Part shown: positions 3,001 through 5,074 of the stretch, in pieces
Position numbering within the stretch: position 1 is the first letter of the stretch
Layout: every line of letters begins with the position of its first letter
Source: a virus
Lineage: Duplodnaviria > Heunggongvirae > Uroviricota > Caudoviricetes
Virus record (IMG/VR): IMGVR_UViG_2693429555_000013
DNA length: 5,074 nt
Strand: one strand, 5' to 3'
Made by a program: the position numbers

Positions 3001-5074
3001 ATATGAATGCCATAGCTTACGGCATCACGAAAAGTTTATGAGCGGCTCAAAGCATCAAGTATAGTGTTGCCGATCATATCGACTGTATGCTGATCGATAA
3101 GCCTGCTACGGCTGTCATGGACGGCGCGTATTACACTTTCGTATACGTTGCTTAAATCTGCTGCGGAAAGTGGTATTCGCTTACCTATATCCAAAACGTA
3201 ATCCGCATAGGCATTTTCAGCACGATTAGGAGCAATGGGAGCAGAGTATCCTGCCGGGGCGGAAAAGTTGAAGTTGGACTGTAATGAGGGAATTTTCATG
3301 TTTATATCTAATACCCTGCAAATCATTTATTACAACAAAATAAACTATATCAAATTCCTTTACCATGAACTGCATGTATACTGACTTGTGTTCATGATTA
3401 TATTAGGGTGGTTAAACTCAATAAAGTCACAAAAATGATTATAATTATGCAATGGTGTAAAATTAAAATATTTCTTAACTCCTTTCCCCAAACCATCATA
3501 ATATGGATGAGCATCTACTTTACTATGCATAAAAGAAAGTCCCTCAAGTAGAGCAGGATGATTACTACGGTTAACAATTATTGCACTATTTTCAATATTT
3601 ACACTATCATTACGACGATCCACATGCATTGAAATTCCATCAGGAGCATATATTGTACCAAGCTTACCTGTAAGTATCATATCCATATCAAGATAGATAC
3701 ACCCCTCCCCGAATGAAATACCGTGATTCTTTGTATTATATGTGCACCTGAATATCTCTCCTGCTTTTAATAAGGCTAAATTTCTGAAGAAATCAAACCA
3801 TGCATGATTTCTTTTCTTTGCATACATAGAAATCAAAGAATCCTGCGCCTTTGAAATTTCCCTCAGCTCTTTCTCTAACAGATTCAACAAGTATTCATCT
3901 CTTTTGTCTTCAGTTCGTAACCTTTGTTCACATATAATATCATGATAAATATCTGATAGTTTTCTGTCATACATACTGAAGTCAACATCTTCCCGATAGA
4001 TTATCATTACATTTTCAAAATCTCGTTCCAATTTTGAAAAAGCAGTCTTTTGGTTGACTGAAAAATCGCCATCAACAAAAATACCTATCATACGATCACT
4101 CTCTATCCTTGCCGCATTTGTGACATTATCTAAATAGGGATGCTGCTTAGTATTAACTATTGGAACCTCATCTTTCTTATATCGTTCAGGATTAGGTTCA
4201 AACCACTGAAAAAGAATAGGCGTTTTTTCATCAATGACCTTTAACTCATATTCCTTTCCTGCAAAAGAAACCGTTTGACAGGGTGAACTCTGCACTATAT
4301 TTACTGAGTTATGGAAAGTTGTCCTTATCGGTGAAAGCATTCGTCGTCCTGTTTATCCATATTTTCTTCACAACTAACTCTTTAATCTATTAATTATATT
4401 GGCATACTCAACCACAAAACCTCCAGCAGTTTTGCCATCTTTGCTTTCCTAACAAACATCCACCGGACATGACAACAAAAACCGGAGCCGGACTCCGGTT
4501 TTGTGAAGCTGTCGGGTTACTTCATCCCGCCAATATTTTCCCACGTCCCGTCAGCACGCAGGATTTGCAGCGGTCTTACCACACACTGTATCTGCTTTTT
4601 ATCCGCATCCAGTATCACCACCTGCGTGATTACCCTGGCCTGCTCCGGAATAATACCATTCTCATCTGACTCCAGGATGTCTGCCGGCCCCAGACGCAGT
4701 TGTGCTGTAAGTAACTCCCCGTGTTCACGGTCATCATGCTTTCCGTACCCGCACAGACGCTGCATAAGTTTTTTTAGTACGTTCATGTCATTCTCCTGTT
4801 CTGCCTGTATCACTGCCCACTTCATCCAGCCCCTTAACATCCTGCCACGGCCCGTCACCAAACCTGACCTGCAAATGCTGAAACAGCCCCTGAACCTGTG
4901 TGGCATCTTTGGGGTCAAGAAAGGTCAGTCCGGTGATGAGTGCGCCATCTGTATCCGGGAACCAGCCATTGCTGTTTGTCTCAATAATGTTTCCCGGCCC
5001 CAGACGAAAACGGATTTGTGTCTCCCCCGGGTCGCCCTTCGGTCCCTGAGGTCCGGTTGCCCCCACCGGGCCAG

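Follow-up and report, generated by a model that had tools for sequence, protein, structure and literature searches.

This analysis revealed that the 89-codon open reading frame (ORF) next to the side tail fibre gene is, as judged from its sequence, a free-standing, old and diverged copy of the fibre tip domain. This late gene is genuine and translated in its own right, and it is under strong purifying selection. With regard to function, we tentatively favour, at just under even chances, a stand-alone tip paralogue that acts as a non-essential fibre accessory in the position otherwise held by Tfa. The duplicated tip as such was already known from Pfam, from NCBI annotation and from the literature. 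What is added here is the evidence for a translated gene, the evidence for selection, the pairing with three fibre architectures, the lack of support for a frameshift or a DNA cassette, and the trace peptides in virions.

Orthologues of the small gene in Stx and lambdoid phages are grouped as Pfam PF06820 and PHROG 576, and three public annotations conflict on their function (chaperone, alternate tip, tail fibre protein). The NCBI annotation pipeline uses the name "phage tail fiber C-terminal domain-containing protein", and the GenBank names are "alternate tail fiber tip" (atfT) or "tail fiber assembly chaperone". Sp5 ORF68 was described as non-essential by Mondal et al. 2016, who had already proposed the ideas of an altered tip and of a reservoir. 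A literature search on PF06820 / Phage_fiber_C and phage 434 side fibres returned nothing beyond Ghosh et al. 2012 (PMC3368898).

Locus and relationship of the two genes

The features are listed in the numbering of the window, by which we mean the whole analysed stretch of 5,074 nucleotides.

4788..5074, minus strand: 3' end of the side tail fibre gene, which runs off the window; stop TGA at 4790-4788; EPclA type (PfN, coiled coil, collagen, PfC)
4824..5015, minus strand: fibre PfC domain, 64 residues, paralogue of the small-ORF domain; PF06820, E 7.8e-36
4791..4823, minus strand: fibre C-terminal tail past PfC, 11 residues, EVGSDTGRTGE; its coding sequence doubles as the small-ORF ribosome-binding site
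4793..4797, minus strand: small-ORF ribosome-binding site AGGAG, read from the sequence, 6 nt 5' of the ATG and within the last codons of the fibre
4517..4786, minus strand: small ORF, 89 aa; ATG at 4786-4784, TAA at 4519-4517; PF06820 and phrog_576
4520..4705, minus strand: PfC domain of the small ORF (residues 28-89)
4472..4502, minus strand: intrinsic terminator 3' of the small ORF; 11-bp stem at 4478-4502, then a U-rich tail
4684..4696, no strand assigned: 13-mer CCGGCCCCAGACG, copy 1, in the RLGP codons of the small ORF
4994..5006, no strand assigned: 13-mer CCGGCCCCAGACG, copy 2, in the RLGP codons of the fibre, 310 bp from copy 1

The window holds the last 94 residues of the fibre, with PfC at residues 20-83 of this fragment. 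In record NZ_CP024131, which is 99.6% identical, the full-length fibre gene is annotated (437 aa); PfN occupies residues 1-133, collagen begins at 251 and PfC spans 363-426, which identifies the fibre as of the EPclA architecture. A single base separates the fibre stop from the ATG of the small ORF, whose frame is +1 relative to the fibre in both E. coli and Salmonella. The 11-residue fibre tail is nearly invariant among 76 loci, and a comparable extension is found in Salmonella fibres. The small ORF consists of a 27-residue N-terminal segment followed by the PfC (Phage_fiber_C) domain at residues 28-89.

The terminator was missed by a simple consensus scan and was revealed by folding (minimum free energy -25.8 kcal/mol, z -3.7). 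It closes the transcription unit of the fibre and the small ORF ahead of the effector genes; the prophage is lambdoid and carries nleB2, nleC, nleH and nleF. In phage 434, a terminator and a ribosome-binding site are annotated at the equivalent places. A plus-strand ORF at 4469-4669 (66 aa), antisense to the small ORF and the terminator, was treated as spurious.

The proposal that the small ORF is a diverged duplicate of the fibre C-terminal domain was borne out by BLASTP (22/62 identities, 35%; 61% positives; E 9e-14), and the motif given for it, RLGP..I.E...NG..P...IT...LD..Q.Q...LQ...DG.W, corresponds to the invariant columns of the pairwise alignment. The alignable length is 62-64 residues rather than about 70. 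The shared 13-mer exists in two copies, the first at the predicted position; the second lies at 4994-5006 instead of 4996-5008, so the spacing is 310 bp and not 312 bp. A spacing of 310 bp is one base out of frame, which fits two genes sitting in different frames. Two copies of CCGGCCCCAGACG in the window were reached by none of the shuffles (0/200), and the 13-mer represents the RLGP motif in identical codons. It is not conserved across loci: the longest exact word common to fibre and ORF ranged from 7 to 14 nt among 74 distinct pairs, with a 13- or 14-mer in 18 of them, and the two coding segments are 55% identical at the nucleotide level.

Profile searches, which had been suggested as a check, placed both sequences in PF06820. 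Against this 64-position profile (gathering cut-off 25 bits), the small ORF scored 119.2 bits (E 9.9e-35) and the fibre 122.7 bits (E 7.8e-36), each over profile positions 1-64. The small ORF also matched PHROG 576, an 89-residue "tail fiber protein" family, with residues 1-89 on positions 1-89 (E 3.8e-59). It had no match in NCBIfam, and the PADLOC defence-system profiles gave nothing at E <= 1. Small ORFs of E. coli and Salmonella are 51-58% identical to each other and the fibre PfC domains of the two are 40% identical, as against 29-35% between small ORF and fibre. Given that orthologues are closer than paralogues, the duplication dates far back and the two copies have persisted since.

The small ORF and the PfC of the EPclA collagen-like fibre (Ghosh et al. 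2012, PMC3368898) belong to one Pfam domain and are 35% identical; this fibre domain was shown experimentally to trimerise by itself, and it nucleates the collagen helix. In contrast to the EPclA fibre, the small ORF is without collagen, coiled coil or PfN and has a private N-terminal segment of 27 residues. An AlphaFold2 monomer model of the small ORF, based on a 19-sequence alignment, reached a pLDDT of 74 and predicted a helix at residues 3-12, a low-confidence linker and five strands, whereas the single-sequence model (pLDDT 56) was too poor for use. Both the trimer and the way of docking are assumed, since the usable model shows a single chain at moderate confidence.

By structure, the model is matched best by the distal tip of phage Mu S/S' (PDB 5YVQ, 8JU3). 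Alignment by hhalign, which is not significant (E about 0.1), places PfC on the last 60 residues of Mu S and S' and pairs RLG, ITG, RPxQ and NGTW.N motifs. Neither the fibre fragment nor the 19-sequence profile retrieved a relative by sequence among solved structures. In Mu, the tip domain always forms the fibre end and its partner is Tfa (U); we know of no free-standing copy there.

Translation, selection and presence in virions

The TGAcATG junction is invariant in all 74 loci that have both genes (74/74), and the ACAGGAG(G) ... ATG arrangement recurs in Salmonella loci. The small ORFs of E. coli and Salmonella have in common an N-terminal motif, M-x-I-[LF]-K-K-[LI]...L-x-G, which begins at the methionine. 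Conservation of the ribosome-binding site, of the ATG and of this motif suggests that the small ORF is initiated independently. The N-terminal MNVLKKLMQRLCG(C/Y)G was also considered as a lipoprotein signal or signal peptide. This reading was discarded, as the stretch bears charges and is not long enough, and position 14 can be C, Y, H or R.

Among 58 distinct alleles, the small ORF had a pN/pS of 0.108 over its whole length, with 0.045 for the PfC part and 0.29 for the N-terminal part. The fibre's own PfC is looser, with a pN/pS of 0.22; the PfC domain of the small ORF therefore evolves about five times more conservatively than that of the EPclA fibre.

The proteome of phi24B virions purified on a gradient includes two peptides specific to the orthologue, ADGTWENIGGMK and VITQVVILDADKK, and those listed for it are all internal to the small ORF. 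Each has a count of 3, in what is apparently the spectrum-count column, as compared with up to 181 for single fibre peptides, which points to an accessory rather than a structural protein. The authors of the proteome remarked on the signal "Spike or just gp59?", and this trace could represent contamination or a rare fusion product.

Pairing with PfC-tipped fibres and the Tfa position

All 28 PfC-fibre loci with downstream room carry small-ORF sequence (28/28), which is frameshifted in three. The pair spans three fibre architectures: it was seen in long-tailed lambdoid phages, phage 434 among them, where the fibre is EPclA; in short-tailed Stx phages, where it is EPclB; and in Salmonella, where a PfN-Pf2-PfC fibre lacks collagen. 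Intact copies next to their fibre gene occur in E. coli, with roughly 7,500 copies of the small ORF, and in E. albertii, Citrobacter rodentium and Salmonella. Sp5 ORF68, phi24B gp59, phage 434 CPT_434_24 and AU6Stx1 atfT are the same gene as here (90-97% identical, 89 aa) in the same place, directly 3' of a PfC-ended fibre gene. Identity is 89.9% with the VT2-Sakai (Sp5) copy and 94-97% with those of other Stx phages, as expected of orthologues. Nothing material distinguishes the present copy from them; it follows an EPclA fibre.

Where a PfN-type fibre has a different tip, a Tfa gene comes next. The Tfa family (lambda Tfa, Mu U, P2 G; Caudo_TAP, PF02413) thus resembles the small ORF in lying directly downstream of the fibre gene, and each is exchanged with its cognate tip as a module. 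The chaperone name given by the phage 434 annotators was assigned by position. Nevertheless, the small ORF has no sequence similarity to Tfa and is homologous to the fibre tip instead, and its orthologue is dispensable for infectivity. It gave no match to Caudo_TAP at E <= 1 in Pfam and none in NCBIfam, and nothing in these two databases linked it to fibre chaperones already described. By contrast, the stretch at 2885-3013, 1.5 kb downstream of the small ORF, is a Caudo_TAP (Tfa) remnant (E 5.5e-12).

The suggestion of a fibre-associated chaperone survived in part. The Sp5 ORF68 deletion mutant still gives plaques and lysogens on K-12, whereas the fibre gene ORF67 is essential (Mondal et al. 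2016), which excludes an essential chaperone for the orthologue; a non-essential accessory or assembly role is the best fit. Recombinant fibre folds and trimerises in E. coli without the small protein (Ghosh et al. 2012, PMC3368898). Given both results, any assembly role is dispensable under laboratory conditions.

In the reading that we favour, an old duplication of the fibre tip domain gave rise to the small gene, which thereafter moved with PfC-tipped fibres as a two-gene module. It is co-transcribed with the fibre gene, translated from its own ribosome-binding site and ATG, and occupies the slot in which lambda-type fibres have the assembly gene tfa. The protein may form a PfC-type trimer and work on or with the fibre tip through like-with-like contacts. 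As a non-essential accessory, it may improve the assembly or maturation of the tip or cap it transiently. It would then be neither a stoichiometric subunit of the virion nor an alternative tip, and its gene would not serve as a DNA cassette.

A more specific form of this idea, which we consider possible but unlikely, is that the small protein is a tip mimic derived from the trimerisation domain of the fibre. It would replace the unrelated Tfa in PfC-tipped fibres and dock like-with-like, with a phenotype only on natural hosts.

An analogy may be drawn with the T2-type gp38 adhesin, a separate small protein on the fibre tip that is essential and stoichiometric and is no paralogue of the tip. 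Like gp38, the small protein is encoded beside the fibre gene and could sit on the tip; in contrast to gp38, it is non-essential in the Sp5 orthologue and present in trace amounts in phi24B virions.

Alternative readings and significance

Improbable, in our estimation, is that a free PfC trimer serves as an independent receptor-binding or receptor-masking protein on the cell surface. Such a protein might, for example, keep progeny fibres off debris and lysogens, or broaden adsorption on hosts untried in the laboratory. The PfC fold appears to resemble the receptor-binding distal tips of Mu-type and other fibres, the small protein is at most a trace component of virions, and a gene that is dispensable on K-12 yet strongly conserved is what would be expected of a function needed only on natural hosts. 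However, the N-terminus is a charged amphipathic helix, and no signal peptide or export feature was found, so that the protein could act only after lysis. Moreover, the low pN/pS of its PfC domain (0.045, as against 0.22 in the fibre) runs counter to the usual pattern of surfaces that contact a receptor, and even the PfC of the fibre itself has no known receptor.

The original prediction also included an alternative receptor-binding tip. One route to it is a +1 frameshift near the fibre end that joins the small ORF to a minority of fibres, which would then have a second or different PfC tip. We consider this quite improbable, and it found no support as a conserved mechanism, given the stops in the overlap frame and the absence of a T7 run here. 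This reading is the basis of the GenBank name "atfT, alternate tail fiber tip". The small ORF lies in the +1 frame in both E. coli and Salmonella, its E. coli frame is open for 44 codons 5' of the ATG, a predicted slippery sequence and pseudoknot are noted in GenBank KU977420, and a GGTTTTTTTCAG run occurs in the overlap of some phages. Free and fused forms could not be told apart in the phi24B proteome, whose low peptide counts would fit a product made rarely.

Nevertheless, four of the 80 E. coli loci with both genes intact have stops in the upstream extension, and variants that create a stop show no depletion (2/31 observed against 18/388 possible). When fibre codons were redrawn at random from the synonymous codons observed in aligned fibres, the extension remained free of stops in 66% of trials, and an open frame here is therefore nothing unusual. 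The window has GGGCTGTTTCAG in place of the T7 run, as this position can hold L, F or M, and in Salmonella the ATG is preceded by a stop at a distance of 1-5 codons. The conserved ribosome-binding site, ATG and N-terminal motif argue for independent initiation, and Mondal et al. 2016 found no frameshift signal. No conserved slippery site with an open overlap frame, as in lambda G/GT or prfB, was found. A prfB-like +1 shift at the fibre stop was likewise rejected: as read from the sequence, the P-site GAA cannot re-pair in the +1 frame, and AGGAG overlaps the P-site codon rather than lying 3 nt upstream.

Tail fibre tips are classic recombination hot spots, and the ORF might matter only as DNA, as a silent reservoir or cassette that is swapped into the fibre gene to change the tip (Mondal et al. 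2016). This is very unlikely, and the corresponding proposal of a recombination substrate for host-range switching found no support, given the nucleotide identity of 55%, the unconserved 13-mer and the pN/pS of 0.11. In favour of exchange are one reciprocal-looking chimera (P0129) and a rare fused form (P0063), in which collagen is joined directly to a PfC of the small-ORF type. Fusion of the ORF to the fibre in relatives, which had been suggested as a point to check, was found in this single rare form, with four sequences against thousands in which the genes are separate, and the P0063 junction is a 7-nt microhomology at the contig edge of a draft genome. Homologous recombination requires far more than the identity between the copies and their longest shared word of 7-14 nt provide. 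This reading is further disfavoured by purifying selection on the protein and by the conserved start, ribosome-binding site and N-terminal extension.

That the small ORF is what is left of an earlier tip replacement, now decaying and functionless, is barely credible: the Sp5 orthologue is non-essential, copies are frameshifted at 3/28 loci and other remnants occur in the region, such as the Tfa fragment at 2885-3013, but pN/pS is 0.045-0.11 over 58 distinct alleles, the gene is intact and paired in E. coli, E. albertii, Citrobacter rodentium and Salmonella, its peptides were detected in phi24B, and the few broken copies are explained by the many prophages in those genomes that are themselves defective.

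The small gene is thus maintained by selection, yet the sole reported knockout had no phenotype. Most Shiga-toxin phages have the two-gene module, as do many lambdoid prophages with effector genes in EHEC and EPEC, and a single genome often contains about a dozen copies. As the fibre is essential for the infectivity of the Stx2 phage Sp5, the building of the tip and its recognition bear on the spread of toxin and effector genes. If the tip-mimic reading is true, the protein would be a new kind of fibre partner that assists, proof-reads or transiently caps the tip, and its phenotype would show only on natural hosts, such as O-antigen-bearing strains. A defined role would settle the three conflicting annotations and might bring to light a fibre helper with no evolutionary relationship to Tfa.

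The small ORF and the fibre tip domain

Comparison of the small ORF (89 aa, 4517-4786, minus strand) with the C-terminus of the side tail fibre confirmed the original prediction that the former is a duplicate of the fibre tip. BLASTP gave 35% identity over 62 residues (E 9e-14), and both sequences cover the full 64-position profile of the fibre tip domain PfC (Pfam PF06820, Phage_fiber_C; E about 1e-35 each). The small ORF also matches PHROG 576 end to end, and the motif listed in the prediction corresponds to the invariant columns of the alignment. The shared 13-mer is real, with its first copy at 4684-4696, but the second copy lies at 4994-5006 and the spacing is 310 bp rather than the 312 bp claimed. 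It is just the RLGP motif in identical codons. The longest exact word common to both members varies from 7 to 14 nt in the 74 distinct fibre/ORF pairs (a 13- or 14-mer in 18 pairs only), and the domain-coding segments show 55% nucleotide identity. The duplication is correct but already recorded; the NCBI annotation pipeline (PGAP) names the small ORF 'phage tail fiber C-terminal domain-containing protein'.

With regard to structure, the AlphaFold2 model of the small ORF (19-sequence alignment; pLDDT 74 overall, about 85 in the domain) comprises five strands and a helix (residues 3-12), with a linker of low confidence at residues 14-23. In the PDB, Foldseek ranked 5yvq_A highest (probability 0.99, E 0.065), a structure that contains the Mu fibre together with its chaperone. 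The ten best matches among the predicted viral structures of BFVD had probabilities of 0.97-1.0, and all usably named ones among these ten are phage tail or tail fibre proteins. By hhalign, PfC aligned to the final 60 residues of both Mu S and S', with RLG, ITG, RPxQ and NGTW.N in common, although not significantly. PfC thus most probably belongs to a widespread fold of distal tips. Sequence searches of solved structures found none of PfC itself.

An unrelated collagen-containing protein (cluster representative P0152, 565 aa) exhibits four tandem repeats of ~85 residues each, whose second half (VVVLDAD...GILQVRRADGTWxEIPALKG) resembles the C-terminal half of the small-ORF PfC; a PfC-like unit can thus also be strung several times along a single chain.

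Organization of the locus

The window represents the right arm of a lambdoid prophage from E. coli of the attaching-effacing type. It shares 99.6% identity with NZ_CP024131, whose genes run J, lom, side tail fibre, small ORF, nleB2, truncated nleC, a fragment of the tail fibre assembly gene (Tfa), frameshifted nleH and nleF.

Features of the window (all on the minus strand)
4790-4788: TGA of the side tail fibre gene (3' end by ORF reading; the gene continues past the window edge)
4786-4784 (ATG) to 4519-4517 (TAA): small ORF, 89 codons, starting 1 base after the fibre stop
6 nt 5' of the small-ORF ATG: AGGAG, within the final fibre codons
4472-4502: strong terminator hairpin with U-rich tail, 3' of the small ORF (-25.8 kcal/mol, z -3.7)
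1183-4340: effector cluster, downstream of the fibre terminator
3360-4340: nleB2, intact (SseK_NleB, E 3e-181)
3036-3326: nleC, N-terminal fragment
2885-3013: remnant of Caudo_TAP, the Pfam family of Tfa, 43 residues (E 5.5e-12, profile positions 92-124 of 131)
about 1807-2642: nleH, frameshifted
1183-1752: nleF

The classic laboratory phage 434 has an annotated ribosome-binding site and terminator at equivalent positions, and it also carries relics of the same effector genes. The Caudo_TAP remnant is flanked by the nleH and nleC fragments and is located 1.5 kb past the fibre module and small ORF. Its presence suggests that an ancestral stf-tfa pair of the lambda type was disrupted when the effector genes, the small ORF and the collagen-PfC tip came in.

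A short ORF at 678-851 (plus strand), which begins MSNPNPCMTCGACC and had no Pfam match, corresponds to a fragment annotated as a frameshifted 'YkgJ family cysteine cluster protein' in NZ_CP024131; it is probably at or near the prophage/chromosome boundary, beside yodB and zinT. A 66-codon ORF at 4469-4669 (plus strand), antisense to the small ORF and starting inside the terminator hairpin, has no supporting evidence and was taken to be spurious.

Distribution and linkage to the fibre

The small ORF was shown to be obligately linked to PfC-tipped fibres. Searching 1.84 billion proteins with a profile of both window domains revealed a very narrow family of 83 cluster representatives, mostly fragments. 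Relatives of the small ORF occur in E. coli, E. albertii and Citrobacter rodentium, and as 79-residue variants in Salmonella enterica. The region is present in about 698 of 5,426 complete E. coli genomes (median 12 copies per genome) and in about 296 phage records, mostly of Stx phages. Of 80 viral-contig loci fetched using the small ORF, 74 have both genes, and the fibre stop is separated from the small-ORF start by 1 base in all 74. Conversely, all 28 loci that were retrieved by their fibre C-terminus and have room downstream contain small-ORF sequence, frameshifted in three (L092, L107 and L113, at about 1486-1756) in which the fibre C-terminus is intact. These three could be defective prophage copies or draft-assembly errors.

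The short-tailed Stx phages carry a fibre of the EPclB architecture followed by the same small ORF. In a Salmonella lambdoid prophage, the fibre comprises the N-terminal domain PfN, Phage_fiber_2 and PfC, without collagen, and is followed by a 79-residue PfC-only ORF, which shares an overlap of 14-23 nt with the fibre and possesses an AGGAGG of its own. Both PfC copies have stayed paired across three fibre architectures. Between E. coli and Salmonella, identity is 51-58% for the small ORF and 40% for the fibre PfC, compared with 29-35% between small ORF and fibre PfC in any combination; the duplication is therefore older than the split of these modules, and both copies were retained. The small ORFs of both groups share the motif M-x-I-[LF]-K-K-[LI]...L-x-G beginning at the Met, in support of initiation at the small-ORF ATG, and the gene has independent translation signals.

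The Salmonella lambdoid prophage has, in the place of the lom of E. coli phages, a 452-residue GDSL-lipase/esterase-family gene (L087, 5193-6551, plus strand), with J on one side and the PfC-tipped side fibre on the other. Its product might deacetylate surface sugars in connection with adsorption.

Possible roles of the small protein

Side fibres of PfN type that have other tips are followed by a Tfa gene, as in phage ev099 and in lambda itself. This position, together with the Caudo_TAP remnant, indicates that with PfC-tipped fibres the small ORF fills the slot of Tfa and, as Tfa genes do, travels with its tip. It is homologous to the tip rather than to Tfa, and the Pfam profile search found no Caudo_TAP similarity.

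The upstream fibre was defined as EPclA (PfN, coiled coil, collagen, PfC) by Ghosh et al. 2012 (PMC3368898), who found PfC to be a trimerisation module and the recombinant fibre to trimerise in E. coli by itself. In the Stx2 phage Sp5, nearly every unknown gene of which was deleted, the fibre gene ORF67 is essential and the small-ORF orthologue is non-essential (Mondal et al. 2016, PMC5155283). We tentatively favour a small protein that would trimerise and act on the tip of the fibre as a dispensable accessory, which would assist assembly or maturation or cap the tip transiently. Two peptides specific to the small ORF ('gp59' in phi24B), ADGTWENIGGMK and VITQVVILDADKK, are listed in the supplementary proteome of a 2026 phi24B preprint, with a count of 3 each (apparently a spectrum count) against up to 181 for single fibre peptides (10.64898/2026.04.10.717836). 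The protein is thus produced during the lytic cycle but makes up no more than a trace of purified virions, and it is not a stoichiometric cap. That it serves as an independent binding or masking protein appears unlikely.

Almost equally doubtful is a joining of the fibre to the small ORF by frameshift. Relative to the fibre, the small ORF lies in the +1 frame, which in E. coli stays open for 44 codons upstream; GenBank KU977420 uses the label 'alternate tail fiber tip' and predicts a +1 frameshift. The phi24B database included hypothetical fibre-gp59 fusions, with the result annotated 'Spike or just gp59?' (10.64898/2026.04.10.717836). Nevertheless, the extension contains a stop codon in 4 of 80 loci with both genes still intact, stop-creating variants are not depleted (2/31 observed vs 18/388 possible), and the extension stayed open in 66% of trials in which fibre codons were redrawn randomly from synonymous codons in aligned fibres. 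The seven-T run of some phages is absent from the window because the residue there varies, and in Salmonella a stop lies 1-5 codons ahead of the small-ORF ATG. A conserved programmed fusion is therefore not supported by the sequences, although a rare shift may occur within the last few fibre codons. Mondal et al. 2016 (PMC5155283) likewise found no frameshift signal.

Two fused forms were identified. P0063 (4 sequences; L083, 1-291) joins the fibre collagen in frame directly to a small-ORF type PfC, with loss of the PfC of the fibre itself and of the N-terminus of the small ORF; its junction is a 7-nt microhomology (CCGGCAG) at the start or edge of a draft-genome contig, and it may be an assembly artefact. 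P0129 (92 aa) is the reverse chimera, in which the N-terminal 40 residues of the small ORF are continued by the last two thirds of a PfC of the fibre type, fibre tail included. Such forms are rare accidents or assembly artefacts, not the regular state.

The small-ORF protein is under strong purifying selection: pN/pS (Nei-Gojobori, distinct alleles) is 0.108 for the whole ORF, 0.045 for its PfC part and 0.29 for its N-terminal 27 residues, and 0.22 for the fibre's own PfC. This pattern is not expected of a silent cassette or a fossil. A DNA reservoir, akin to the 'intragenomic reservoir' suggested by Mondal et al. 2016 (PMC5155283), is consequently very improbable, and the fibre/ORF pairs compared gave no sequence evidence of recombination between the copies. 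A mere remnant is, for the same reason, scarcely credible.

The phage 434 GenBank record labels the gene 'tail fiber assembly chaperone'. With this label, that of KU977420 and the suggestion of Mondal et al., all three functions originally proposed (alternative tip, recombination substrate, chaperone) were already in circulation; they are published or disfavoured. The remaining interest is that of a widely carried, selected gene adjoining an essential fibre gene of Stx phages.
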